Origin: a virus
Virus record (IMG/VR): IMGVR_UViG_3300036886_000363
Location: 1 to 64,000 of that record
DNA: 64,000 nucleotides
Strand: one strand, 5' to 3'
The translations under genes were made by a program, and so were the position numbers. Under the pieces are notes generated by a model, which was given only the letters and a program-made list of their open reading frames with translations, did not search any database and was not told the DNA's origin. This document shows, one piece after another, positions 16,614-31,235 of the stretch (its first letter is position 1; each line of letters starts with the position of its first letter).

Positions 16614-18890
16614 TTATTGTTCTTCTGAAAATCTCGGAATTCTTTTTTTAAAAGCTAACTTTTGCATATTTTTAATGGATTGTTTATAATAGCTTTTTTT
16701 TAATTCCATTCCTATTGCATACCTATCCATTTCTACTGCACAATATGTAACCGTTCCTATCCCATTAAATGGGTCAAGAACGATATCTCCTTTTGTACTC
16801 CATAATTCTAAACACCGCTCCACAGTATCTAATTGGAGAGGGCAAACATGCTTCTCATCTTTCTCATCACGAGATAAATCTGAATTTAGAACTCTTGTTT
16901 GCCGAATATCAAACCACACAGGAGAAGCATATCTCTGCCATATTTCATGAGATAATTTATTCTTTTTTTGATTATCACTATATATTCCTGTCGGAGCATC
17001 GCTTTCTCCCACAAATTCTGAAAATCCGTTCTCTCTTGATATAGGAATAAGATTCTCCCCCGGCTTTCTCATCACAATAATATAATCTGGCAATCCTTGA
17101 CCGCAGCGAGATGAATCCTTAATTACTTGTTTGTGGGCGAGGGCCAATGCTTTTGTCCTGACTGCTTGTATAAGAGGATCTTTCCAGATACAAACTTCAG
17201 AATGAAATATAAATTTTTCTTGTTGAAACATCCAAATTAAATCTCCTCTGAAATCATGCAGCCCCATATATCCATCATGTGTGATTGTTGCCGGTAGATT
17301 CATGCAATGAACTGCAATGAGTCGACCAGGACACATTACCCTATATAATTCCTTAATTAAAAATCTAAAATGGTCAAGAAAAGTATTTATATCTTTACAA
17401 TTTCCCATGTCTCTTATTGAATTCGTATATGTGAATAGAGAGGCGAATGGGGGAGAAAACATAGAAAATCCGACATAGTTATCGGGCAAGGTTTTAATTA
17501 TTTCTATATTGTCTCCTAAATATAGTTCATATTTATTTGCTTCTTCATAATTGTCAATCTCGTAAATCTCTTCCAAATGAGATTGCTCTTTTAATTCTTG
17601 TTTGCTTATGTCTTTCATATTGGAAATCATCTCCCTTCTCATTTTTATTGCATCAGCTTCTTTTCTTTTTATATTATCTGCTACATTTCCTTCAACATCT
17701 GTTGTTATTATATAACAGTTTACTGGATTTTTCTGTCCAAATCTCCAACATCTTCGTATTGCCTGATAAAAAGCCTCATAGCTATCTGACAATCCACAAA
17801 AGATAATATTATGGCAATGTTGCCAATTCAATCCAAAGCCTGCAATTTTTGGCTTTGTAACAAGTATTTTTATTTCTTCATTTGAAAATTTGATCATATT
17901 ATTTTCTTTTATTTCATCTTTTTGCGATCCTGTTACTTCAACCGCTCCTTTTATTTCTCTTGATACTTCTTCACTTTCTTTATTTAAATCACACCAGATT
18001 AACCATGATTTATCAGATCCTAAAATTAAATCATTAATAATTTTTATCTTTTCACTTATTGATTCCCGTCTTGCATTTCTTCTTTCTCCCAATGTTTCTG
18101 CCTTTTGTATAGAAAAATGTCCTGGTTTGGGGGTTCCAAATGGAATAACTCTTTCTATTATATTTAAAGGTGGCAAAATAAATTTGTTGTCATCAAATCC
18201 TAATTCTGAAGGAAAAGAAAACATGATCGCCCATGAGCAAACCCACTCCCAAAATTTTTCTTGTCCATGTTTTTTTAATCTCCATGTTCCAACATTTGAT
18301 GTATCATTTATAAAAAATAATGATAGCATTTCTGGCCTTGATAAGACATTAAGGAATTCTGAATGATTGCCCAGTTCAATAAAATCATTGGGAGAAGGAG
18401 TTGCAGTACAACATAATTTATATGGTGTTCTTTGAAAAGAATCAATAATGTAATTTCTAAATTTTCCTGTATAAGATTTTAAAATTGAGGATTCATCCAG
18501 AACTATCCCTGCAAAAGAATCAGCATGAAATTTATGAAGTTTTTCATAGTTTGTGATATTGATCCCATTGACAATATCATTCTGTGATTCACAGATATTA
18601 ATGGGGATTTTGAATTTATCTCCTTCTCTTTTTGTCTGTTTAGAAACTGCTAAAGGGGCAAGAATTAAAACTGGTTTGTTGGTATATTTGCATACTTGTC
18701 TTGACCATTCAATTTGTATAGGAGTTTTGCCAAGTCCACAATCGGCAAAAACAGCAGCTCTTCCTTTTTTAATTGCCCATTTTACAATGGCTTCTTGAAA
18801 ATCATAAAGCATAGGGTTTACATTTTCAGGAAGAAATCCGGTCTGTCTATTTATAATATCCTTCTTTTTTAAAAAATCTTGATATCTCAT
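16614..18890 (-). CDS. SNF2-like helicase fused to N6-adenine/N4-cytosine DNA methyltransferase
   Basis: DCGLGKT, LDES, TATPSPN, QAIRRCWRFGQ; then FSPPF (motif IV) and VLDPFNGIGT (motif I); visibly AT-richer than flanks. Confidence 0.85.
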   Translation of the reverse strand: MRYQDFLKKKDIINRQTGFLPENVNPMLYDFQEAIVKWAIKKGRAAVFADCGLGKTPIQIEWSRQVCKYTNKPVLILAPLAVSKQTKREGDKFKIPINICESQNDIVNGINITNYEKLHKFHADSFAGIVLDESSILKSYTGKFRNYIIDSFQRTPYKLCCTATPSPNDFIELGNHSEFLNVLSRPEMLSLFFINDTSNVGTWRLKKHGQEKFWEWVCSWAIMFSFPSELGFDDNKFILPPLNIIERVIPFGTPKPGHFSIQKAETLGERRNARRESISEKIKIINDLILGSDKSWLIWCDLNKESEEVSREIKGAVEVTGSQKDEIKENNMIKFSNEEIKILVTKPKIAGFGLNWQHCHNIIFCGLSDSYEAFYQAIRRCWRFGQKNPVNCYIITTDVEGNVADNIKRKEADAIKMRREMISNMKDISKQELKEQSHLEEIYEIDNYEEANKYELYLGDNIEIIKTLPDNYVGFSMFSPPFASLFTYTNSIRDMGNCKDINTFLDHFRFLIKELYRVMCPGRLIAVHCMNLPATITHDGYMGLHDFRGDLIWMFQQEKFIFHSEVCIWKDPLIQAVRTKALALAHKQVIKDSSRCGQGLPDYIIVMRKPGENLIPISRENGFSEFVGESDAPTGIYSDNQKKNKLSHEIWQRYASPVWFDIRQTRVLNSDLSRDEKDEKHVCPLQLDTVERCLELWSTKGDIVLDPFNGIGTVTYCAVEMDRYAIGMELKKSYYKQSIKNMQKLAFKKRIPRFSEEQ

Positions 18891-18891
18891 A

Positions 18892-21800
18892 TTACTTTAC
18901 ATCTCCCAATAGTTTGATCTTGTCTGAAAAGTTTTTAATTCCTGCTTCGAAATCTTTTCTATTATTGGGATTGTGAAGAACTGCTGCAGGATGGATGCAC
19001 CAACAAATCCAGCAGCCGACCTTCTCGTTCCATTCTGTTTTGCCGCTTATTGATATTATACCCCCGTCTCGATCTGTTAATGCTTTTATTGCAGTGTTGC
19101 CAAATGCGAGTATCAGACAGGGATTGACAATCTTGATTTCTTGTTCAAGCCATTTCCAGCATGCTTTGATCTGAGTTTTATTCGGAGTTCGGCTTTTTGC
19201 AGGAAAACATTTTGCAATATTTGTAACATGAAAATCTTCCCGATATAATTCATACTTGAGAAGCTCTGGCCATAATATGTCTTTCCCTGCCCTGCCAATG
19301 AATCCATCTCCTTCTCTGTCTTCATCTGGCCCGGGAGCTTCTCCCAACGCCATGAGGTTATATTTTCCGGGAGAGGGAAGGACAGGGCCGAACTCACATT
19401 CTTTGCCGAGTTCGCAGGAACAACAATCTATTAAACCCCAGTCTACAGGGAAGAAGAATGTTTTCTCCTCTATATAATTCAGATGAGAAGCAGGGATATC
19501 CAGAGCCAGTAGTTTGTCTATATCGGGAAACATGAGATCAAGATTTCCCCTGAGCAATTTTGGATACATGAGTTTCTTATCAGTGAATACTCTGAAGGAA
19601 AAATACTTCCCGACATCTTTTGCAGGCTCATCCCCGAAGGCGCCGATCTCCGTTAACATTTTTTCCAGCTTGCTCATATTCTCTGTTCCCGTCCGGACAT
19701 TAAAGAAGCCCTGTAGTTGGTTATTGCTCCTTTTTCTTGCAGTCATACATTCAACAGCTGTCACTTCTCCAATTCCCTTGATCTCTTTGAAAGGGATATA
19801 AAGAGTATGATTTTTGGCAATCCATTTATCAGCATCGGAAACACCGACCTTTGGCAGGACAATCTTTAGTCCCAGACGATAAGCCTCTTCGATCAGCTCT
19901 ATTTTTTTTCTTGCATCTGAAGATCCATATGTCAAATTTGCACAAATAAATTCTGTCGGGTAATGATATTTAATAAAAGCAGTCCAATATCCGATCATTG
20001 CATATTCAACAGAGTGAGACCTGTTGAAAGAATAGTTGGCATGCTTTTGTAATGCAGTCCAGAATTCTTCTGCCTCTCGATCCGAGAAGGTCTTCAATTT
20101 TCGACAGCCTTCTATAAACGAATCTTTGAAGGGTTTGAACTCTTTTGCATCTCGTTTCTTGCCTATGATCTTGCGGATCTTATCGGCCGTTGCATAGGAT
20201 AGGCCGGCAACCTTATGAATGACTTCCATGATCTGCTCTTGATATGTTATGATTCCGTAGGTGTTTGCAGTGATCTCTTCATATATGGGATGTTTCTTTT
20301 CCCACCTCTCCCCTCTTTTTCTCTTGATGAAATCATCTGTCATGTGGGAATCAAATGGCCCGGGCCGGACAAGTGCAATGATATCTCCCAGAAGACTAAA
20401 ATTATCTGCTCCAATATCTTTTGCAAGTTTTGATGTCGCCCATGCACTAAATTGAAAGACACCAACATTGTTGCCCGCAGATATCTGAGCAAGGACATTT
20501 TTATCATCGAGGGGGATCTTCTCAAAAATGATATCTATACCATGATTCTGTTTGATAAGGTGTTTTGCCTCACTCAATATTGATAATGTATTCAGTCCGA
20601 GGATATCCAGTTTCATCAGCCCGACATATTCGGAGTCTTCCATATCCCAATTTGAAACAACATTTCCTGATCTCATAACGAGAGTGCATCGGGTTCCCTG
20701 AGTCAGATCATCCGCAGAGACAACAACAGCTGCGGCGTGCTGACCTGTTCCCATAACCTGCCTTTCCAGTTTGATTGCATGCTTGATGACATCTGGATAC
20801 TTGCGGGCAAATGCCTTGCCTTCCTCTGTATCTCTTATCGCTGATTCAATGATATCTTCATCTGGAGTTGTCTGGGCTGCGTTGTCTATAACTTTTGCAA
20901 ATCCGTCAACTTCTTTATTCTCGATGTCAAAGACCCGTGCGACATTTCTAATCGCTGCCCGGCCTTTCATTGTCAGGAAGGTGGATAGAGACGACACATT
21001 TTTTCTGCCATATAATTCTTCAAGGTGATCTCTGATTAAATGTCTCTTGCGATCTTCAAAATCCAGATCGATATCCGGAAGATCAATTCGTTCATCTGAT
21101 ATGAAGCGAGAAAACAAAAGGTTGAATTTAATCGGGTCGACGGTAGTGATTCCCAGCAGATAAGCAATCAGTGATCCGCCTACACTACCGCGACCCGGGC
21201 CAACCATGATATCATTCTTTCTGCACCACTCTGTTAATTCCCAGACAATCATGAAATACGGTGCGAACTTTTTGTCATGAATAATTTGCCATTCTTCAAT
21301 CAGTCGATCTTGATATTCCCTTTTTCCTTCTGGGAAAATCTCAAAGAGTTTTTCCCTACAAATATCCATGAGGAATTCTTCCGGATCAGCATTTTTATAT
21401 GCCGGAACCTTTGGCAAATAGATGTCTTGTTTCTTGATTGAGAATCCTTTGCATTTTTCTGCTATCTCTATTGTTGACTCAAGAGATTCTTGAATATCGT
21501 AATCGCTGAGGATTTCTTGTTGCCTGAAAGCATCGATCATTTCCTTTTCTGATCTCAGATGTAATCCATTGATTTCAAATTTATATCGATTTGTATCTGT
21601 CCATTTCGCCTTTGTCTGTATGGCAAGCAGTACTTCATGAGTCTGATCGTCATCGGCATTTATATAATGACAATCATTTGTAGCCACCAAACGGATATTC
21701 CAATTGTCTGCCGTCGAGACACAGAAAAGATTTGTCTGTTTTTGCCCGGCGAAATTGTGAGGCATTACTTCAAGGTAAAGATCATCTCGAAGCTTCTTAT

Positions 21801-22257
21801 TTAGATCACGGAGAAGATCGATTCCTCCCGGGAGATTGACAAAGGAGCTGTGACAGCCGGTCATGATAACCATCCCCTCACAAAATTCATAAAGCAGATC
21901 GAAGTCAATCCGGGGACGATGATAGAATCCTTCAAGATTGGCAATGGTCAGCATCTTGCACAGATTCTGGAATCCCTGCTCATTCTTTACAAGCAGGGTT
22001 ACATGCCCTCTGACCTCTTTTTCTTTGATTTCCAGCTTCTCGACGATATAGGCTTCGCATCCGAGGATTGGAATGATGTTTTGCTTTTTACAAGCTTTTT
22101 GGAATTTGATAAGACCGTCAATATTTCCATGATTTGTTAGTCCAAGATATCTCTGGTCAAGTTCTTTGGCTCTCTTGACATATCCTTCAGCCGTTCCAAA
22201 TCCATCAAGCAAACTGTATTCATCATGCACATGCAGATGACAAAAGTTATCGCTCAT
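18892..22257 (-). CDS. dnaE: DNA polymerase III alpha (PHP + Pol-C) with C-terminal family-4 uracil-DNA glycosylase domain
   Basis: HLHVHDEYSLLDG, GRGSVGGS, PDIDLD, KLDILGL, YSFNRSH; C-terminal CCSC, GEAPG, TNIAKCFP, HPAAVLH. Confidence 0.93.
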   Translation of the reverse strand: MSDNFCHLHVHDEYSLLDGFGTAEGYVKRAKELDQRYLGLTNHGNIDGLIKFQKACKKQNIIPILGCEAYIVEKLEIKEKEVRGHVTLLVKNEQGFQNLCKMLTIANLEGFYHRPRIDFDLLYEFCEGMVIMTGCHSSFVNLPGGIDLLRDLNKKLRDDLYLEVMPHNFAGQKQTNLFCVSTADNWNIRLVATNDCHYINADDDQTHEVLLAIQTKAKWTDTNRYKFEINGLHLRSEKEMIDAFRQQEILSDYDIQESLESTIEIAEKCKGFSIKKQDIYLPKVPAYKNADPEEFLMDICREKLFEIFPEGKREYQDRLIEEWQIIHDKKFAPYFMIVWELTEWCRKNDIMVGPGRGSVGGSLIAYLLGITTVDPIKFNLLFSRFISDERIDLPDIDLDFEDRKRHLIRDHLEELYGRKNVSSLSTFLTMKGRAAIRNVARVFDIENKEVDGFAKVIDNAAQTTPDEDIIESAIRDTEEGKAFARKYPDVIKHAIKLERQVMGTGQHAAAVVVSADDLTQGTRCTLVMRSGNVVSNWDMEDSEYVGLMKLDILGLNTLSILSEAKHLIKQNHGIDIIFEKIPLDDKNVLAQISAGNNVGVFQFSAWATSKLAKDIGADNFSLLGDIIALVRPGPFDSHMTDDFIKRKRGERWEKKHPIYEEITANTYGIITYQEQIMEVIHKVAGLSYATADKIRKIIGKKRDAKEFKPFKDSFIEGCRKLKTFSDREAEEFWTALQKHANYSFNRSHSVEYAMIGYWTAFIKYHYPTEFICANLTYGSSDARKKIELIEEAYRLGLKIVLPKVGVSDADKWIAKNHTLYIPFKEIKGIGEVTAVECMTARKRSNNQLQGFFNVRTGTENMSKLEKMLTEIGAFGDEPAKDVGKYFSFRVFTDKKLMYPKLLRGNLDLMFPDIDKLLALDIPASHLNYIEEKTFFFPVDWGLIDCCSCELGKECEFGPVLPSPGKYNLMALGEAPGPDEDREGDGFIGRAGKDILWPELLKYELYREDFHVTNIAKCFPAKSRTPNKTQIKACWKWLEQEIKIVNPCLILAFGNTAIKALTDRDGGIISISGKTEWNEKVGCWICWCIHPAAVLHNPNNRKDFEAGIKNFSDKIKLLGDVK

Positions 22258-22416
22258 CGATTCTCTCTTTCTTGATTTGTTCTAATCGATATTTGAATTC
22301 ATCTTGGAATTCTCCACCGATGCAAGAATAATGAAGGTGTAAAGGCGGTCAGCCTGATAACCCATAAGTGTCTTCTCACGAGGAACGGTTATATTTCCTG
22401 CCAAGTAGATTTTCAT
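22247..22416 (-). pseudogene. DpdA-N-terminus-like mini-ORF, copy 5 (44 aa to TAG at 22282; 56 aa with a -1 shift)
   Basis: MKIYLAGNITVPREKTLMGYQADRLYTF; the -1 frame continues HYSCIGGEFQDEFKYRLEQIKKERIDER and overlaps the dnaE start. Confidence 0.5.
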
Positions 22417-22580
22417 TGTTTACTACATCCCAGAGCATAGAAGGCTCCAACCGATGATATGATTATTCCAAGAACGTACTTGCCGGGAAATTCAGGAGCA
22501 AAACTAACCAAAGTTAATCCTGCAAACATAGCTATCGTTCCGAGTGCTTCTTTTTGATATGGAGATATTTTTGTTTTCAT
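22413..22580 (-). CDS. small two-TM membrane protein (55 aa)
   Basis: Manual translation MKTKISPYQKEALGTIAMFAGLTLVSFAPEFPGKYVLGIIISSVGAFYALGCSKQ. Confidence 0.5.
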   Translation of the reverse strand: MKTKISPYQKEALGTIAMFAGLTLVSFAPEFPGKYVLGIIISSVGAFYALGCSKQ

Positions 22581-22587
22581 AATTTTC

Positions 22588-22775
22588 TGGAGGAGACGGG
22601 CATCTTCGGAAGCCTTTCACAATCAGGATATAACCGGCATCTGACTGCTCTTTGAAGCGCATACTATTTTGGAGCATAGACATAGCCTTATTAGTCGCTC
22701 CCCGGTCACTATTAGATGTTTTCAGACCGTCTCGCTATCGCTCCCACTCAAAGTAGTTTTTCTTGTCCCGTCTCC
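22588..22775 (-). ncRNA. putative 188-nt structured RNA ending in UCCA
   Basis: 5' GGAGACGGG pairs with 3' CCCGUCUCC followed by UCCA; nested internal stems; no long ORF. Confidence 0.5.
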
Positions 22776-22782
22776 ATCTGTC

Positions 22783-22856
22783 TGGAGGCGGTGAAGGAGG
22801 GTCACAGTTTTCCTCCTGCTGTAACAGGATTTGCTCCGCATCTCCCTCCCACCGCC
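22783..22856 (-). ncRNA. putative 74-nt tRNA-like RNA ending in UCCA (non-canonical)
   Basis: GGCGGUG/CACCGCC 7-bp acceptor-like stem plus UCCA, extended by GGAGGG/CCCUCC; no T-psi-C loop. Confidence 0.5.
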
Positions 22857-22864
22857 ATAAAATT

Positions 22865-23884
22865 TTAACCCGGTTTGAGAGCCATTAGGTGCTGGAAATT
22901 CCCGGCATCAAATAAGGCTCGATTGTCTTTGTAGATCATCTTGGAGCTGTGTTCAAGTATCTTCAAGAGGAACATTGGATTAATCGAGAAGATGATCTTG
23001 TCATGAGAGGATATGATGTCTGTTTCATTTTCGATCTCGCCGACCTCACTCTTGCCGCGACACCTGATTTTATTCTTCTCAATCTCGATCTCCACAAGTT
23101 TATCAGTATCAAATTCCCCTTCTGTAAGAATCGCAGCTGTCTCAATCATTGCCCCGATATCTTTTGGCAGATCAATCTGAAGCCCCTCAAAGTTTTCAAA
23201 ATACTTTGAGTAGTCATTGAATTTGCCTTCGACCATCCGGCAACAAAAGAGGACATCATCTTTTGTTGCGAAGAATGCCCATCCTCCGGTGACACAATAA
23301 TCGACTACCGGAAATTTGATAAGCTCTGTGATCGCAGTTGCCGGGATCAGGATCGAACAATTCATTGCCTTCTTCATCTTGTATTGGCTGATCCTGAGAT
23401 CATCGGAAGACATTATATAATCGTCTTCAATGAGCAGACAGGTCAATGATGGGTGGCTCATGTCTTTGGAAGCCGAGAAGGAACACAGCTCCGCGCCGGC
23501 GACAAAATCTTCCGGCAATGGTTCCAGTTTCTTCATGATCGCTCCCAGCTCCAGAGTCTTTATCATATCGAGGACCTTCTCTCCAGATGAAGTGGCAAGG
23601 CTCGCTTTTGTCTTCGCACTCTTGATCTTCAATTTGTCCTCTTCAAGGGTTAGTTCGACATCCTCAGCCGACATCCCTGCCATGATCTTATAGAATTCAT
23701 TGGCAGAGATCGAGCATTTAAAATCTGAATCGAAGGGGTGGATAATACAAATCTGATCGTTGTATGTCATAACATCCTGGCCAGTAAAAATGAAATGTGT
23801 TGCCGCCTCGACGATCTCACGGCGGGCTAATCCGGGTTTTATTGCTGTTAGAGCTTTTACTAATTCTCCCCTTTTTACTTTCAT
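22865..23884 (-). CDS. dnaN: DNA polymerase III beta sliding clamp-like protein
   Basis: About 340 aa; ELVKAL N-terminus, SDDLRI, RMVEGKFNDY, C-terminal LMALK resemble the clamp; next to dnaE. Confidence 0.75.
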   Translation of the reverse strand: MKVKRGELVKALTAIKPGLARREIVEAATHFIFTGQDVMTYNDQICIIHPFDSDFKCSISANEFYKIMAGMSAEDVELTLEEDKLKIKSAKTKASLATSSGEKVLDMIKTLELGAIMKKLEPLPEDFVAGAELCSFSASKDMSHPSLTCLLIEDDYIMSSDDLRISQYKMKKAMNCSILIPATAITELIKFPVVDYCVTGGWAFFATKDDVLFCCRMVEGKFNDYSKYFENFEGLQIDLPKDIGAMIETAAILTEGEFDTDKLVEIEIEKNKIRCRGKSEVGEIENETDIISSHDKIIFSINPMFLLKILEHSSKMIYKDNRALFDAGNFQHLMALKPG

Positions 23885-23901
23885 AACTCCTCCCTTTATT
23901 A

Positions 23902-24708
23902 TTATTGGCTGGCAAAAACCGATTGCCATCCTTCCCTATCTTTATTTGTTCTACCATGACATGGATGACACAATGTAATAAAATTATCAAAACAGTCGTT
24001 TTTCTTATCATAATCTATATGATGAATGACCAATCCTTGTTTCAAAAGCATCCCTTCTAATTCATTTTCATGAACAAAACATAACTGACATGCATTCCCA
24101 TCCCTATCTTTTATTATTTTTTTTAAGTTTCTTGACCAATTTTGAGAATATGGTTCTTTTGAAATGCCTCCTTGCCAATTAGAATTATTTTCTCCAGTAT
24201 GTTTTTTCTTAACTTCAGGTTTGTTTTGAGCTATTTTCATGTTTGCTTTTGCTTCTTCTGATTTTGGTTTCCTCATGTTTTGTTTTGCTTCTTCTGATTT
24301 TGGTTTCCTCATGTTTTGTTTTGCTTCTTCTGACCGCCTTTGCCCAAAATTACCTTCTTTTATTTTATTCCTCGTTTCCTTAGAACAACGTTTAATTCTC
24401 GCATCAGTTTCAGCGGTTAATCCCTTTTTTGAAGAAATTAATCCTTTTCTTGATTTTCCACTATTTTTACCATATGCAGCAACTCTTTTGTCCGTCTCTT
24501 TTGTAAATCCTTTATTCCAAGGTATTTGAGATCCTTTCATTCCTTTATTCCAAGGAGTCCGTCCCAAATTATGAGAATTTCCTTTTGTGTGATGATTATG
24601 AATATATATGTTCCAATTATAAGGAGGAATTTTACTTCTCTCAACAGGATATCCACAATTACATTTACATAAAGGAGGTATATTTTGAGACTCTCGCTTG
24701 ACTTTCAT
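23902..24708 (-). CDS. HNH homing endonuclease with NUMOD-like repeats
   Basis: LCKCNCG, PWNKG repeats, NSNWQGG, CQLC...VIHHIDYDKKND...LCHPCH; AT-rich. Confidence 0.85.
   Translation of the reverse strand: MKVKRESQNIPPLCKCNCGYPVERSKIPPYNWNIYIHNHHTKGNSHNLGRTPWNKGMKGSQIPWNKGFTKETDKRVAAYGKNSGKSRKGLISSKKGLTAETDARIKRCSKETRNKIKEGNFGQRRSEEAKQNMRKPKSEEAKQNMRKPKSEEAKANMKIAQNKPEVKKKHTGENNSNWQGGISKEPYSQNWSRNLKKIIKDRDGNACQLCFVHENELEGMLLKQGLVIHHIDYDKKNDCFDNFITLCHPCHGRTNKDREGWQSVFASQ
24236..24332. repeat. 36-bp tandem coding repeat (KPKSEEAKQNMR), about 2.7 copies
   Basis: tttgcttcttctgattttggtttcctcatgttttg recurs with a 36-bp period. Confidence 0.8.
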
Positions 24709-24878
24709 TTCTTCCTCCTTAGTTTTGATGATGCGATTCCTGTTGTAACATATTCCGGCAGATATTCCTTCTGCAGGTCTTTCAAATGGAAATAGGAATA
24801 GAGCCTGCTCTTGACTGATTGTTTGGTGAGGACGACCGCTTGATTATCCTCCATCCATGTTGCGAAGTAGACTTTCAC
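24705..24878 (-). CDS. DpdA-N-terminus-like mini-ORF, copy 4 (57 aa, GTG start)
   Basis: MKVYFATWMEDNQAVVLTKQSVKSRLYSYFHL...; GTGA overlap with copy 3. Confidence 0.6.
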   Translation of the reverse strand: MKVYFATWMEDNQAVVLTKQSVKSRLYSYFHLKDLQKEYLPEYVTTGIASSKLRRKK

Positions 24879-25042
24879 TTCTTCTTCCTTTTTATCTTCT
24901 TTATCTTCTTCCAGATATGGAGAACCCGGCGACATTGATTCTTTGGATCGAGGGCATAGGAAAACATACGATATAACACTCCTGATTTTCTCAGTTGATT
25001 TGAATATTTTGGCTCGCCGCCTCCGACAAAGTAGATTTTCAT
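24875..25042 (-). CDS. DpdA-N-terminus-like mini-ORF, copy 3 (55 aa)
   Basis: MKIYFVGGGEPKYSNQLRKSGVLYRMFSYALDPKNQCRRVLHIWKKIKKIKRKKK. Confidence 0.6.
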   Translation of the reverse strand: MKIYFVGGGEPKYSNQLRKSGVLYRMFSYALDPKNQCRRVLHIWKKIKKIKRKKK

Positions 25043-25192
25043 TTATACCTTTTTATAAGATGTTCCCATTCAGCTTTGCCATCTCCAGTTTGGATTTCAA
25101 AAAAGCTGACGAGTTTTGGTTATATACTTCATCCAAATTTCAAGTCTTCCAATATTTTGAATTCCTGACATCCCCGCAAAGTAGATTTTCAT
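25039..25192 (-). pseudogene. DpdA-N-terminus-like mini-ORF, copy 2 (31 aa to TGA at 25097; about 50 aa with a +1 shift)
   Basis: MKIYFAGMSGIQNIGRLEIWMKYITK; the +1 frame at ACC-AAA-A gives LVSFFEIQTGDGKAEWEHLIKRYK ending in an ATGA overlap with copy 3. Confidence 0.5.
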
Positions 25193-26139
25193 TTGAAGCC
25201 GAAGCCTTCCACCTTCTTGATCTTGAAAGCCCATGGCCATGGAGGCAGATTGTCCTGGAGATCGAGAAAGTATATGATATTCAGTTCATCTCTGAGACGA
25301 TAGTCATTGCTCAATCCGGCTGTCTTAATTAATTCTATGATCCCGTCTTCTTTCCAAGCCGTGATCGGTTTATATCCCATGCCCATCTCGACATATTCTC
25401 TCTGGGCGTCTGCAAGCTCTTTCCCATACCAGCGCTCGCCTTCTTTAGGTTTGTAAGTTTTGGGATCTTCCTGCCGGAACTCACTTTCACCCATCTCAAA
25501 TCCTTTGGCCATAAAGTACTCGAGGATTTCTTTCTGCTCCATCTGAGAATATGTCGAGAAGTGCTGTCCTTCCTCTTTGTCTTTAGGAGATCGATTGGAG
25601 ACATTGATCGTCATCGAGTTCTGCATATAATCATACTTGCCCATTTTTTTCTTTGGGACATAGACAGCTCCGAAGCGCCCGGTCAAAACCCAACTTGTCG
25701 AATCAACAGAATACCATGGAAATCTGAGCATGAGATCAAGAGAGGTCATACCAAAGCCATGGATTTTGACTTTTGGCATTCCCTTGTCGTCACAGATAAA
25801 TTTGGAGAAGAGATTGTCGAGCCATTCTATTAATGAGACATTAGGGATCGGGACCATGCCTCCCAGAGAGACATAATCATAATTGTCCAGGTAATTTGTG
25901 AGGTAGTTTAAAGGCTCGCCATAGTGAAAGCAGGGAATCGGCTTCAATCCGGCATCCTCCATGATCTTCTGATTCTTTAATGTCTGGACGGGATCACCGA
26001 TTGCATCAAGGACAGAATAGTGATCGAGATAATCAATGTGATCCTTGATGAATTGGATATACTCTTGAATATTGATCTCGATCTTTTTTGACCATGCAGA
26101 GTATGCACCCGAGTCTAAAAACAATTCCACCTTTTTCAT
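25189..26139 (-). CDS. dpdA: DpdA-like tRNA-guanine-transglycosylase-family DNA deazaguanine-inserting enzyme
   Basis: LFLDSGAYS, VLDAIGD, PCFH, LGGMV, KIHGFG, SVDSTSW TGT-barrel motifs; directly downstream of queC-folE; frame is open upstream to 26307. Confidence 0.75.
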   Translation of the reverse strand: MKKVELFLDSGAYSAWSKKIEINIQEYIQFIKDHIDYLDHYSVLDAIGDPVQTLKNQKIMEDAGLKPIPCFHYGEPLNYLTNYLDNYDYVSLGGMVPIPNVSLIEWLDNLFSKFICDDKGMPKVKIHGFGMTSLDLMLRFPWYSVDSTSWVLTGRFGAVYVPKKKMGKYDYMQNSMTINVSNRSPKDKEEGQHFSTYSQMEQKEILEYFMAKGFEMGESEFRQEDPKTYKPKEGERWYGKELADAQREYVEMGMGYKPITAWKEDGIIELIKTAGLSNDYRLRDELNIIYFLDLQDNLPPWPWAFKIKKVEGFGFK

Positions 26140-26200
26140 TTTGCCTCTTTCGTAGACCTCCCAAAGTTTTGTCGCTGGTTGGAGCTTACCTACTTCAATG

Positions 26201-26320
26201 CTATAATATGACATAAGTCTTGATGTCATACCGACACTTGCCATCCATCTTTCTTTCAAGCAAATCGATTTCGGCAACTCCACCCGGACGATCTGCATAT
26301 GAAGCAAGATAGAGTTTCAT
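26201..26320 (-). CDS. DpdA-N-terminus-like mini-ORF, copy 1 (39 aa; a +1 shift fuses it to dpdA)
   Basis: MKLYLASYADRPGGVAEIDLL...; ATGA overlap with folE stop; the +1 frame reads ERWMASVGMTSRLMSYY...MKKVELFLDSG. Confidence 0.55.
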   Translation of the reverse strand: MKLYLASYADRPGGVAEIDLLERKMDGKCRYDIKTYVIL

Positions 26321-27234
26321 CTTTGTATCCTTGCCATGAATTCATCTTTGCAACCGTTCCGATTTTCCGCAAAGTATCCCCGAACGGCGATGGGTTCATA
26401 AGGGGAATTCCACTTTTTGACTCCTCTCATCTCTTTGCAAAGATGCCGGGCCTTCATGACCAGTACTTGCCCGAGTGGCTTTGTCACTTCTTCAAAATAG
26501 TCAACAACATTATTTATCAATCTCTCTGCAATTTGAAGTCTCCCAGAATAATAGTCAATGACCCGCGCGATCTTGCTTGTTCCCATGATCCATTTATCTG
26601 GAATGTAAGCATAATAATATTCTCCGAAGAAAGGAATCATGTGATGTTCACAATAAGAAAAGAAGTATCCTGAGTCAATGAGCATCTCATTATAAATGAC
26701 TCCATCGATGCCATTTTCAAAAAGAGTTACTTTTGGCATGCGGGCAGGATCATAAGCGCAGAAGAATTCATTATACATCTTTGCGATTCTCTGGGGAGTA
26801 TCTTTGAGCCCGGGCCGATCAGGATCTTCTCCGATAAATTCGAGGATGCGGACAATGTTATCTTCGATGGTGGAATCTGCATCACTGACTTCCCAGAAGT
26901 ATTGAATCCAACCATCAACTTGATTTGCATGATAGGTTGGCAAGGAATCTATAGGAGTTGTTGATTTGATATGCAGGCAGGCAAAATCGTGTTGTGAATA
27001 TCTCTTTCTTGTCTGCCCACTATCAACAACATCATCGACAACAAGAGTCTCTCCCACCCATGCGATTTCTGTCATTGGAATTTGTAATAGATGAGACAGA
27101 TCTATCGCCAATGGGATTCCTCCCCGTGGAACACCATAGATATTTTTGTATGTTCCCCCTGCCTGCATGATTTGCTGTGCAAGCTTTGCCGCATCTCTAT
27201 AAAAGTCGTCCAGACTATAGATAATGTCTATCAT
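26317..27234 (-). CDS. folE: type I phosphoribosyltransferase domain fused to GTP cyclohydrolase I
   Basis: N-terminal GVPRGG, LVVDDVVDSGQT, WIQYFWE; C-terminal GEDPDRPGLKDTPQR, CEHHMIPF, SKIAR, RLQIAERL, HLCKEMRGV. Confidence 0.9.
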   Translation of the reverse strand: MIDIIYSLDDFYRDAAKLAQQIMQAGGTYKNIYGVPRGGIPLAIDLSHLLQIPMTEIAWVGETLVVDDVVDSGQTRKRYSQHDFACLHIKSTTPIDSLPTYHANQVDGWIQYFWEVSDADSTIEDNIVRILEFIGEDPDRPGLKDTPQRIAKMYNEFFCAYDPARMPKVTLFENGIDGVIYNEMLIDSGYFFSYCEHHMIPFFGEYYYAYIPDKWIMGTSKIARVIDYYSGRLQIAERLINNVVDYFEEVTKPLGQVLVMKARHLCKEMRGVKKWNSPYEPIAVRGYFAENRNGCKDEFMARIQR

Positions 27235-27908
27235 TTCTTCACCGGGCTTTCATATTGAATAGGGTCGGTTCTTCCGATATTTGCAAAAGCCTCAAGTCTT
27301 TCCTGACAAGAGCCGCATTTCCCGCAGCTTAGAAATTGATCTTTGTAACAAGTTCTGGTCAGCTCGTAGGGAACAGCAGGAGAGATTCGATATCCCAATT
27401 TTAAGATTGAAGTTTTGTTATCGTAAAGAAAGGGAGCTGAGAGCTGCACCCTTGCTCCGGATCCATCGACGACTGCTTTCTGCATCGAGAAGATAAACTC
27501 TGGTCTGCAATCTTCATAAATGGCATGATCGCCTGCATGAACTCCAACTGCAACAATATCGGCTCCAATCGACCATGCATATCCCATCATGATTGCGACG
27601 AAGATAGTGTTTCTGCCGGGGACGACTGTCTGAGACATCGATGCATCGTTATAATGACCTTCGGGGATATCTCCGCCTGTCTTGAGAAGATTGGATTTGA
27701 AGAGCTGGCCGATGAAGGGGAGATCGATGTTGACAATTTCAGGCAGCTCATAAAACTTCGCGATCTTTTCAGCTGCCTCTGTCTCGTATTTGTTGTGCTT
27801 GCTCCCATAATTAAAATTGACAGGGTGTATCTCCGCTCCGAGATGTCTAAAATACCCACAAAGAGTAGCACTGTCCATACCGCCGGATAGACCTAACACT
27901 ACTTTCAT
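27231..27908 (-). CDS. queC: 7-cyano-7-deazaguanine synthase
   Basis: SGGMDS, YGSKH, VPGRN, YEDCRPEF, TRTCY...CGKCGSC. Confidence 0.95.
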   Translation of the reverse strand: MKVVLGLSGGMDSATLCGYFRHLGAEIHPVNFNYGSKHNKYETEAAEKIAKFYELPEIVNIDLPFIGQLFKSNLLKTGGDIPEGHYNDASMSQTVVPGRNTIFVAIMMGYAWSIGADIVAVGVHAGDHAIYEDCRPEFIFSMQKAVVDGSGARVQLSAPFLYDNKTSILKLGYRISPAVPYELTRTCYKDQFLSCGKCGSCQERLEAFANIGRTDPIQYESPVKK

Positions 27909-28736: not shown

Positions 28737-30299
28737 CTACAAAACATCAAGAAATTTATGTAGTTGTAGAGAAATTACCACTCCTTTTTTCTTGAGCATG
28801 TTCACTTTGTCCATCCATCCTACAAGGATTTTTGGATCGAGCTTGTCATGAGAGGGTGAAAAGGCAAATCGACAGCCTTGATGTCTGAAAAGATGGACAA
28901 TATAAAGAGCATCTTCGAAGTCAGCCCAATCTGCAATAACAAATTTAATGAAAGATTCTCTGCCTAAGTTTTCAAAGTTTTTAACCCACTTATAATGACT
29001 CATTCCGCTTGATGGACCTTTCCAATCTGCGACATAATGGATCCCCGGATATGGATGCATATAGATCGAGCCATTGGTTTCAATCGAGACTTGAAATTTA
29101 TCCATGAAAAGTTCTTTAGCAACCATGATAATATCTGATTGCAGAAGGGGCTCGCCTCCTGTGATAGTAATGTTTGTATTCCCGAAGGAGACAGTCTTTT
29201 TGAGAACATCATCGATTGACATCTCTTGCCCGGCGGTCTCATCTTGAGCATAAGGGGTATCGCAATTATGAACCCACATATAATCAAGCAAAAAACTATT
29301 ATAAGGAGAACAAGACAAATTATACACTTTCAATAGATTTGGCCTCAGAGAAGGAGGATAATTATTCCTATTAATTTCCTTGATTGAAAGGATTTTAAGT
29401 CCATTTATTGCAGATAATTTTTTGCCGTCTTTTCTATTATTTTTCCAAAAGTTATATCCTATTTCATGGGTAGAATAATGACAAGATTCACATTCAACTT
29501 TTAGATTTTCTGAAGAATCATTTTTTCTATTGCTGTCTTTATGATGAACATCTAAAGACTTCTTTCTTTTGCAAATAGAACATTCTTTTATTTTTCCTTC
29601 TTTTATATCTTGTTTTAATTTATCATAATTGGGTGTTTTTGATCCTCCACTCCAATTAGGATTTTTGTCTCCCATTTTTGGTAAGGATTGTTTTTTTCTT
29701 AATTCTTCTTTTTGTTTTTTTGAAAGAGAATTATAAGGAGAAATATAAGTTCCTTCTTCTTGTTTCTTTTTAATTGTGTTGCTAATTTTTTTTCCAGAGA
29801 TACTATAGTTAGTGTTTTCAATAGATTTTTTCTTAATATCATTGTCTTTCATCGGATTTTTAATTCCTGTTATTCTAAATGATAATTTATCCTTGAAATT
29901 AGAATGATAGATTTCGTTCCCTATTTGTAAATCTTTAGCTTTCTTTATTCCTTGAGTTGTAAAAAAGGGATGCTCTTCAGTTACATAATACTCGTGTTTT
30001 TCTATTTTTATTCTTAACCAAGAATTAACCTCTCTAACAATGATATTTGTAATTTCTGTTTCTACCAAATTCTTTTCTTTATCAAAGGTCAATAATTTAT
30101 CTCCAACTTCAACATTATATATTTTTTTGTTGGGTTTGGAAGACAGAATGACTTTAGGGACATGGCGTCCTGGCATAACCCCAAAACAGTAACTACATTT
30201 CAGATTGCAGCCCGCGAGACGGATGAAGGTACAAAGACTCCCTTGATGTGAGGCAGAGATTTCCCCATTGATGCTACTAAAAATACTATGAACTTTCAT
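28737..30299 (-). CDS. queE: 7-carboxy-7-deazaguanine synthase (radical SAM), intein-containing
   Basis: IFSSINGE, FIRLAGCNLKCSY / CDTPY, ITGGEPLLQ, IETNGS, SLQLHK. Confidence 0.92.
   Translation of the reverse strand: MKVHSIFSSINGEISASHQGSLCTFIRLAGCNLKCSYCFGVMPGRHVPKVILSSKPNKKIYNVEVGDKLLTFDKEKNLVETEITNIIVREVNSWLRIKIEKHEYYVTEEHPFFTTQGIKKAKDLQIGNEIYHSNFKDKLSFRITGIKNPMKDNDIKKKSIENTNYSISGKKISNTIKKKQEEGTYISPYNSLSKKQKEELRKKQSLPKMGDKNPNWSGGSKTPNYDKLKQDIKEGKIKECSICKRKKSLDVHHKDSNRKNDSSENLKVECESCHYSTHEIGYNFWKNNRKDGKKLSAINGLKILSIKEINRNNYPPSLRPNLLKVYNLSCSPYNSFLLDYMWVHNCDTPYAQDETAGQEMSIDDVLKKTVSFGNTNITITGGEPLLQSDIIMVAKELFMDKFQVSIETNGSIYMHPYPGIHYVADWKGPSSGMSHYKWVKNFENLGRESFIKFVIADWADFEDALYIVHLFRHQGCRFAFSPSHDKLDPKILVGWMDKVNMLKKKGVVISLQLHKFLDVL
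29265..30188 (-). mobile_element. intein (308 aa) with HNH endonuclease in queE
   Basis: Starts CFG, block B VTEEHPF, ends VYNL...WVHN followed by +1 Cys; internal CSIC...VHHKD...N...CESCH; AT-rich. Confidence 0.9.
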
Positions 30300-30666: not shown

Positions 30667-30876
30667 TCATGATTTGTGACTCCTGATTCCCCTGACTTGT
30701 TGAATGGCAAACCATACTGAGACAAAAAGCATTCCCCATTGCTCGGCTGTCCACTCTGCATATAACCAAAATGGTGCCCCGCAAAGTCCGCAGATGAATC
30801 CTTGCCTATATCTCTTCCCTGCCAGAAGCCAGATCGAGAGACAAGAACAAATTACAATCCCTGTCTGACAGATCAT
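30667..30876 (-). CDS. small multi-TM membrane protein
   Basis: Hydrophobic segments, GFICGLCGAPFWLY...QWGMLFVSVWF; ATGA overlap with queD. Confidence 0.5.
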   Translation of the reverse strand: MICQTGIVICSCLSIWLLAGKRYRQGFICGLCGAPFWLYAEWTAEQWGMLFVSVWFAIQQVRGIRSHKS

Positions 30877-31235
30877 GGGATTACCTCGCAGAAACTATTC
30901 TCTGTTTCCTTGAGAATAATCTTTTGGATATAAACACCCTGATTCATGAAAGGGCCAATCAACATATTAACAATATGGTTGGCCAGCAATTCGGATGTTG
31001 GAATAAAATGGACAACCTCATTGAGAACCTTATGATCGAATTGATCGATGACATTCTCTTCAACAATCTTTTTCAGATCGGCATAATCCATTACCATCCC
31101 ATTTTGAAGCATACCTGCAATTTCAACGATCAACTCCCAGCGATGGCCATGGAGATTCTTGCATTTGCCCGGGTGATCCGGCAGGAAATGTGCCGCCTCA
31201 AAAGTAAACCTTCTACTTATTTTTGTTTTTGACAT
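30873..31235 (-). CDS. queD: 6-carboxy-5,6,7,8-tetrahydropterin synthase
   Basis: FEAAHFL, CKNLHGHRW, GMVMDY, FDHKVLN, PTSE, ETENS. Confidence 0.95.
   Translation of the reverse strand: MSKTKISRRFTFEAAHFLPDHPGKCKNLHGHRWELIVEIAGMLQNGMVMDYADLKKIVEENVIDQFDHKVLNEVVHFIPTSELLANHIVNMLIGPFMNQGVYIQKIILKETENSFCEVIP

Follow-up and report, generated by a model that had tools for sequence, protein, structure and literature searches.

The DNA analyzed here, referred to as the window, is a stretch of 64 kb out of the 83,436-base virus record IMGVR_UViG_3300036886_000363, and it carries on its minus strand a gene for a DNA transglycosylase of the DpdA type accompanied by five small open reading frames (ORFs), called mini-ORFs or copies 1 to 5 in the following. 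We propose, with a probability of about 0.65, that the dpdA locus of this peat phage encodes one catalytic core together with separately encoded heads that are supplied in trans. The head would be the first quarter of a TIM (triosephosphate isomerase) barrel, that is, strand 1, helix 1, strand 2, and a helix. A 1-nt insertion would have cut off dpdA's own head (copy 1), and the core would for that reason most likely be made from its own Shine-Dalgarno (SD) sequence and ATG at 26139; being without two of the eight strands, it would be completed in trans by copy 3, copy 4, or copy 5, which is intact in the population. Copies 1 and 2 would be paralogues that have been knocked out and are decaying, with redundancy making their loss tolerable. 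The headless DpdA of the window is a fused gene freshly split by a frameshift, with the cis head cut off and the trans heads remaining. Trans supply is the best-supported mechanism, and we infer that heads and core bind each other, that the enzyme is active, and that translation starts at 26139.

The dpdA-like frame is open from a TTG at 26307 to 25189 (a 372-aa frame) and matches phrog_887 with an expectation value (E) of 1.5e-57 over residues 40-273 of that frame, while no match was found in Pfam; a tblastn search with the window DpdA returned 227 phage records. The ribosome binding site and ATG described for this gene in the initial annotation are present, as 26139 reads MKKVELFLDSG with AGAGG in front. 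The core catalytic aspartates, D9 (FLDSG) and D146 (SVDS), are invariant in 25 sequences, and their roles are mapped by motif from Asp63 and Asp206 of CAjan DpdA, which are named in PMC7544227, and from Asp95 and Asp256 of the Salmonella enzyme; the assignment is thus a putative one. In the description of Salmonella DpdA (PMC10164549), the FLDSG-type aspartate Asp95 lies at the end of strand 3, just before the following loop, and the loops after strands 1 and 2 belong to the DNA surface and flank the active site. Since the Asp95-type residue sits at strand 3, the head should comprise the four elements given above and a core from 26139 should start at strand 3.

Membership of the TIM-barrel fold was tested by VIA-align on the model of a relative with a fused head (P0093). 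This model gave Z = 12.3 to QTRT1 (6h42_B, root mean square deviation [RMSD] 3.8, 219 aligned residues), the top structural match, and Z = 12.2 to DpdA (7ui4, RMSD 4.1, 239 aligned residues, model residues 5-329 to chain residues 12-410). When trimmed to its core (46-329), the model aligns from residue 91 of Z. mobilis TGT onward. Foldseek against PDB gave weak rows only (E ~1e-2), and a DpdA profile compared with PDB chains by sequence gave 0 matches. The window DpdA does not hold eight strands in one polypeptide, the head being in another frame.

The initial annotation had stated that related phage TGT-like proteins begin with a head-like segment ahead of FLDSG. This is the case for the DpdAs of CAjan, vB_Ade_ART, S0112, and Sulfitobacter M39, which start with a hydrophobic strand M-x-[VIL]-[FY]-x-A-[GA], continue with ..LESYHY.., and carry a head of ~60 aa before VFLDSGAF in the same chain. 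A hidden Markov model (HMM) of six intact mini-ORFs matched known DpdA heads at E ~8-9 only, and the reverse test was therefore built: a heads-only HMM from 24 fused DpdA heads of relatives, with no mini-ORFs, run on the window and ten loci translated in six frames. It found window copies 5 (E = 0.002) and 3 (E = 0.006) and was weak for pieces of copies 1 and 2. In the relatives it found the fused head of locus L009 (1.4e-9) and mini-ORFs of L006 (1e-8, 2e-4, and 7e-4), L008 (0.003), and L007 (0.006). When this HMM was applied to 85 related IMG/VR loci, read on both strands, 294 matches at E <= 1 resulted; with a single exception they are on the dpdA strand, clustered directly before and after dpdA. 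The homology of the mini-ORFs to the fused DpdA heads, which had been proposed from the letters of the window, is borne out at the level of sequence by copies 5 and 3 and by the related loci. Pfam and PHROGs gave no family for the mini-ORFs at the thresholds used; a weak phrog_31958 row (E = 0.034) for copy 4 was disregarded.

Fused, headless, and broken forms of the gene are all found among relatives. In the nearest IMG/VR relative with a visible start (L009, 61% identity), a fused-head DpdA comes after FolE, where the window has copy 1. Among the best 120 relatives, the gene-caller start is <20 aa before FLDSG in 89 and at least 40 aa before it, with a head, in 26. Sorted automatically, 82 loci fall into 35 with a fused DpdA, 35 with a headless one, and 12, including the window, with a broken head; de-replication at 95% core identity left 71 clusters (30 fused, 31 headless, and 10 broken). 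Nearly all 82 loci hold one to five free head genes on the same strand. Inspected by eye, the DpdAs of L006 and L008 start with M..LFLDSG directly after an unrelated gene and have head genes downstream, and that of L007 has a likewise headless start, with a single head gene located before the polymerase. As read from these gene structures, fused and split forms coexist in one clade, in which a split core accompanied by several free heads is the usual state.

The head units themselves were counted in the relatives with a combined HMM and chained across frames (n = 279): 218 are intact, 15 have a '+1' and 10 a '-1' break, three have an in-frame stop, and 33 are fragments (191, 13, 8, 2, and 30, respectively, after de-replication at 95% core identity into the 71 clusters). 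Orthologues of the head types are shared between phages with as little as 45-67% identity in DpdA. Copy 4 belongs to a conserved type which we call 'ATW', with 41 intact ORFs in 40 loci, often as the first gene after dpdA; the regular expressions for head types beyond 'ATW' were too crude (108/167 untyped), and other type names are descriptive only. In the 'ATW' alignment (n = 36) A6, W8, L26, S28, and Y43 are invariant, and a profile search (1153 candidates) brought up 452 proteins with a length of 25-128 aa and E <= 1e-3, none informatively named. Also matched by this profile were P0128, a natural fusion of a copy-4-type head to a DpdA core (E = 2.5e-13), a short chimera, and P0127, an in-frame fusion to an HNH/NUMOD-type endonuclease on another contig.

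Modeling the core (26139-25189) together with a peptide, a check put forward in the initial annotation, was carried out for copy 4, and barrel-completing contacts are predicted. The input consisted of our own alignments of the window core (25 sequences) and of copy 4 (36 sequences). The three runs gave ipSAE values of 0.88, 0.86, and 0.87 while the best of three controls gave 0.00. In the calibration, which is only rough with such alignments, 58 of 80 solved complexes and 2 of 110 mismatched pairs attain the mark applied. At least 95% of contacts are common to the runs, and the partner has a predicted local distance difference test score (pLDDT) of at least 82. Residues 1-6 of the mini-ORF product are placed against core residues 141-148 (the WYSVDS strand) and residues 22-33 against core residues 1-12 (the FLDSG strand), which is the neighborhood expected for strands 8-1 and 2-3 upon barrel closure. 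The idea that the first strands are supplied in trans is in this way supported by the predicted complex (0.87 vs 0.00) as well as by the natural fused and split forms in one clade.

A close examination of the window confirmed the mini-ORF starts at 26320, 25192, 25042, 24878 (GTG), and 22416 and the intactness of copies 3 and 4. The described ATGA/GTGA overlaps were also found, namely, between FolE and copy 1, DpdA and copy 2, shifted copy 2 and copy 3, copy 3 and copy 4, copy 4 and the HNH gene, and a 55-aa ORF and copy 5. The 18-nt repeat is exact at 25027 and at 25177, and a third copy with two mismatches lies at 22401-22418 over the start of copy 5; compared with chance, 0 of 100 shuffles reached four matches. 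The window paralogues share at most 34% identity over 29 aa and have little in common beyond MKIY-x-A, and copies 4 and 5 have orthologues in other phages at 45-61% identity. Because copies 4 and 5 are closer to these orthologues than to their paralogues in the window, the head array is old and not the product of a recent duplication. Recombination between copies, also suggested initially, has nothing in its favor beyond the one shared 18-mer. As a separate observation, a variant in sequencing run X12 skips 67 nt at the junction of copies 3 and 4 (24877-24945), which holds the Lys-rich tail of copy 3. Coordinates of the features are collected in the table.

Features of the dpdA locus in the window (positions are those of the window)
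Feature	Position	Strand	Remarks
QueD (PTPS)	30873-31235	-	further upstream
Radical-SAM QueE-like gene	28737-30299	-	further upstream
QueC	27231-27908	-	directly upstream of dpdA, with FolE
PRTase-like/GTP cyclohydrolase I (FolE) fusion	26317-27234	-	just upstream of copy 1
Copy 1, N-terminal piece	26201-26320	-	39-aa ORF, MKLYLASYADRPGG..; strand 1 of dpdA's own head; ATG overlaps FolE stop
Copy 1, remnant in DpdA frame	26140-26307	-	WMASVGMTSRLMSYYS (strand 2) and linker to the internal start
Frameshift of copy 1	26248	-	extra A between AAG (K24 of copy 1) and TGG (W of DpdA frame)
DpdA core	25189-26139	-	316 aa, MKKVELFLDSG..; without barrel strands 1-2 (predicted)
Copy 2	25039-25192	-	broken; 1-nt shift at ~25114-25117 (ACC AAA A); in-frame ORF stops at 25097
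18-nt repeat	25027-25044	+	spans copy 3 start; identical at 25177-25194 (copy 2 start)
Copy 3	24875-25042	-	intact, 55 aa, Lys-rich tail
Copy 4	24705-24878	-	intact, 57 aa, GTG start, conserved 'ATW' type
Copy 5	22247-22416	-	just before dnaE; shifted after RLYTF in this record

The initial annotation had counted three frameshifted copies. The stretch is present in 19 runs, mostly peat metagenomes, from 14 studies, and the breaks were checked on the contigs of four runs (X12, X14, X15, and X18) that are not marked as a possible source of the record. At the place of copy 1, one frame reads MKLYLAS..LLERK and the following one WMASVGMTSRLMSYYS..MKKVELFLDSG, so that a +1 shift does join copy 1 to the DpdA frame. 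An ORF at 4699 of L012 and the fused head of P0019 are closest to copy 1, and because both read ..E-[EK]-W-M-I..RL-x-SY in a single frame, the break can be placed as one extra A at 26248. The remnant in the DpdA frame has a weak C-terminal match to the combined HMM (E = 0.34) and matches the P0019 head in BLASTP at 2.7e-5. For copy 2 the +1 shift at ACC-AAA-A (~25114) was confirmed as well: the shifted frame (KLVSFFEIQ.., chained as '+1') ends in a TGA that overlaps the start of copy 3, and relatives of this copy are intact at L016 3952 and broken at L050 6042. Contigs of X12 and X14 match the window letter for letter and with 0 gaps at the copy 1 break, as do those of X12, X14, and X15 at the copy 2 break.

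The claim did not hold for copy 5. All three covering runs have one more base after plus-strand position 22332 (depth 10/10 in X12, 6.4/6.4 in X14, and 3.2/3.2 in X18; X15 is without cover), and with this base copy 5 is one ORF from 22416 to 22247 that ends inside the dnaE start. An orthologue at L011 7369 is intact, and the restored copy 5 sequence continues likewise. The frameshift of copy 5 is therefore private to this record, being either an error or a rare variant, and the number of broken copies in the population is two out of five instead of three. With regard to indel forms seen in contigs, which drop rare variants, copy 5 differs by one base between the record and the three runs, and copies 1 and 2 have one form each. 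A gapped-pattern search for ON/OFF forms of copy 1 gave 0 matches in metagenome contigs and 0 in viral contigs, from which the window's own genome records were possibly excluded. The orthologue of copy 5 in L006 (8226-8406) needs a -1 shift elsewhere, at a C4 run (ACA CCC CAC).

Several points weigh against the proposal that free heads complete the core in trans. The binding is predicted from the model's own confidence, with our own alignments as input, and solved single-chain TGT/DpdA barrels may have aided the model, in which case a pass would mean likeness to a whole barrel and not proof of binding. AlphaFold2 gave low confidence to the head of the fused protein P0093 (pLDDT 38-54). In its model of P0128 the head is outside the TGT-aligned part, and the alignment was faulty: the head has pLDDT 83-90, residues 58-86, which include FLDSG, are below 50, and the TGT matches cover residues 72-361 only (Z = 8.9). 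MAFFT had placed the FLDSG of the core rows on head columns, and this model therefore says nothing on docking. Copy 4, the very copy used for co-folding, is weak with the heads-only HMM (E = 0.56). The runs that reproduce the two breaks are all peat metagenomes and may sample a single phage population. The automated sorting of loci misfiles some of them; inspection by eye shows L011, L048, and L080 to be fused and L038 and L077 to retain remnants.

A further point is that free intact heads are about as common beside fused DpdA (mean 2.0 per locus) as beside headless DpdA (2.3). Completing a headless core can for this reason not be their sole role, unless an internal start of the fused genes also yields a free core. 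An ATG is found 3-16 aa before FLDSG in 29 of 33 fused dpdA genes, 17 of them with an SD-like motif, which occurs in 18/37 cases at the true starts of headless genes vs 53/549 at control internal methionines. This suggests that fused genes may also yield a free core. The same similarity in numbers fits the view that the mini-ORFs are functional in another job, in which they might modulate or block DpdA, anchor it to proteins of the replisome, or self-assemble. Head types also sit at fixed places among replication genes, with the copy 5 type before the polymerase in the window, L006, and L011. We nevertheless consider such another job unlikely, as several head types are fused to DpdA cores (P0019, P0057, P0093, P0113, and P0128), headless cores are without two barrel strands, and co-folding is predicted to set copy 4 exactly where strands 1-2 belong.

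It is quite improbable that the mini-ORFs have no function and remain from recurrent partial duplication of the 5' end of dpdA, next to a headless DpdA that is dead or works alone. Decay is visible: in the window two of five copies are broken, and in the relatives a frameshift or stop affects 28 of 279 units, with fragments making up another 33. However, 218 of 279 units are intact, and their types are orthologous across phages with DpdAs as divergent as given above. The copy 4 type has invariant residues and 452 relatives, and of the 17 substitutions that separate copy 4 from its counterpart in the ~85-90% variant strain, 10 are at third codon positions (hand count). The genes for preQ0 synthesis linked to the window dpdA (FolE, QueC, PTPS/QueD, and radical-SAM QueE-like) are all intact, too.

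Recoding had been offered initially as a further way to supply the first strands, and programmed +1/-1 ribosomal frameshifting could in principle restore copy 1-DpdA and copy 2. The shifted frames do restore the RL-x-S-[YF] motif and the coupled stop/start overlaps, and the two breaks are stable across samples. We regard this explanation as very unlikely. No known slippery heptamer or stop-codon pause is found at GAAAGAAAG-A-TGG or ACC-AAA-ACT, and the window shows no conserved position; the copy 5 shift is an indel absent from other runs, and intact orthologues need no shift. In the relatives the breaks go both ways (15 '+1' and 10 '-1'), include three in-frame stops, and lie at different places, mostly on tracts prone to slippage at the DNA level. 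That the frameshifts are errors of this one assembly may well be true of copy 5 but is hardly credible for copies 1 and 2, whose sites are reproduced without change in runs not marked as a possible source.

The relatives' frameshifts cluster just after strand 1 on (AG)5-8, G7-9, or C8 tracts. Such a tract is held by the head unit in 19 of 25 frameshifts, and 35 further tracts are in intact units. Tract density is 31-fold higher in head units (59 in 37.3 kb, 1.58/kb) than elsewhere (39 in 766 kb, 0.051/kb). Of the RERE/ERER peptides in intact mini-ORFs, 10/15 are encoded by perfect (AG)6 or (GA)6, and ~1% would be expected from core codon use. Judged from these patterns, the tracts bear the signature of slippage-prone contingency loci, and the process looks like repeat-driven on/off switching. 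Examples among L012-L089 are L049 4884, L054 4710, L018 7193-7658, and L070 209/374/2194, and tract lengths differ between related contigs. Slippage tracts are also described for agt, a DNA-modification gene of T2 (Gomez, Barrick and Waters, bioRxiv 10.1101/2025.10.21.683753); in the accessible text of that preprint, DpdA, deazaguanine, and transglycosylase have 0 occurrences. The head units of the window contain no (AG)>=5, G/C>=7, or A/T>=9 tract, and its two breaks, at GAAAGAAAG-A-TGG and ACC-AAA-ACT, look like ordinary, stable knock-outs.

What several heads would be good for can be considered only tentatively. One possibility, to which we lean less than to trans supply itself, is that the interchangeable ~55-aa heads carry the strand 1/2 loops, so that each might give the core a different sequence context or substrate, and that this repertoire would be switched via tracts in the relatives or via plain indels in the window. 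This extension, close to the tuning of specificity suggested in the initial annotation, would be attractive in light of the published view of the strand 1/2 loops of bacterial DpdA (PMC10164549).

The minus-strand order of genes from 31235 to 18892 is QueD, a radical-SAM QueE-like gene with a HINT domain, a 196-aa ORF, QueC, the fusion of a phosphoribosyltransferase (PRTase)-like segment to GTP cyclohydrolase I, the dpdA-like gene, three small ORFs, an HNH endonuclease, a clamp-like gene, a 55-aa ORF, the fifth small ORF, and a fusion of DnaE to a uracil-DNA glycosylase (UDG). The QueE-like protein (520 aa) has its HINT-type domain at residues 56-156, probably an intein, and the PRTase-like segment of the GTP cyclohydrolase I is N-terminal (PF00156, E = 2.3e-6, residues 3-57). 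The HNH endonuclease gene (23902-24708) lies directly 3' of copy 4 with an ATGA overlap and has an internal tandem peptide repeat, SEEAKQNMRKPK. Within 16614-22257, the DnaE-type polymerase has a C-terminal domain of the uracil-DNA-glycosylase superfamily, and the next gene is a fusion of an SNF2-type helicase and an N6/N4 DNA methylase. The variant strain in X12 (~85-90%) joins 22416 to 22781 and is thereby without the 55-aa membrane-like ORF (22580-22413) and without most of the ~285-nt non-coding stretch 3' of the clamp gene (window 22417-22780). Rfam over 22200-26500 gave 0 matches at E <= 1, ARAGORN over 22300-23000 gave 0 genes (no tRNA), and a scan of the minus strand from 27985 to 22000 found no terminator-like site.

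DpdA sets which phage guanines become 7-deazaguanines and hence which restriction systems are escaped. If heads are indeed supplied in trans, the locus would represent a natural split (beta/alpha)8 barrel with exchangeable first-quarter subunits and a new route to diversify a DNA-modification enzyme. The annotation of dpdA would then change, since many 'short' DpdAs and their adjacent small hypothetical ORFs would be one enzyme. If the heads are switchable in addition, 7-deazaguanine DNA modification would here be served by a multi-specificity system resembling a phasevarion. The window captures one moment in the passage from the fused to the split form.

Phage DpdA1 of the CAjan/9g type (PHROG 887) is of the same family as the window protein, with 43% identity over the core, the same two aspartates, and a common gene order of FolE, dpdA, small ORF, clamp, and polymerase. 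It differs in having its head in the same chain, whereas in the window the head is separated from the core and accompanied by four more head genes; no head-like ORF was found in two flanking small genes translated from CAjan-type loci. Bacterial DpdA (Salmonella Montevideo, 7UI4) shares the TIM-barrel transglycosylase fold with the window family, as judged from the relative's model. According to PMC10164549, it is a single chain that depends on DpdB and ATP and contains a CXCX2C..H zinc site; no such Cys cluster is seen on reading the sequence of the window's 316-aa core. Among the papers on DpdA, 7-deazaguanine, and phage that were listed by title and opening of the abstract, none on a split DpdA was found, but their data tables may include short DpdAs; the accessible text of the Hutinet 2023 preprint has 'split' only within 'Graph Splitting' and neither 'truncated' nor 'small protein'.

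The tracts in the relatives' head genes resemble those of phasevarions and phage contingency loci, whereas the window heads have no tract and are broken at ordinary sites. Phasevarions and switching hsdS genes provide phase-variable specificity in restriction-modification. Laboratory-split (beta/alpha)8 barrels, for example HisF halves, are able to reassemble from their pieces. Among natural enzymes, QTRT1/QTRT2 is a TGT-family enzyme made of two polypeptides, each being a complete barrel. The arrangement proposed for the window is different in that one barrel would be shared by a six-strand core and a ~55-aa two-strand protein, with several alternative partners for the same core.

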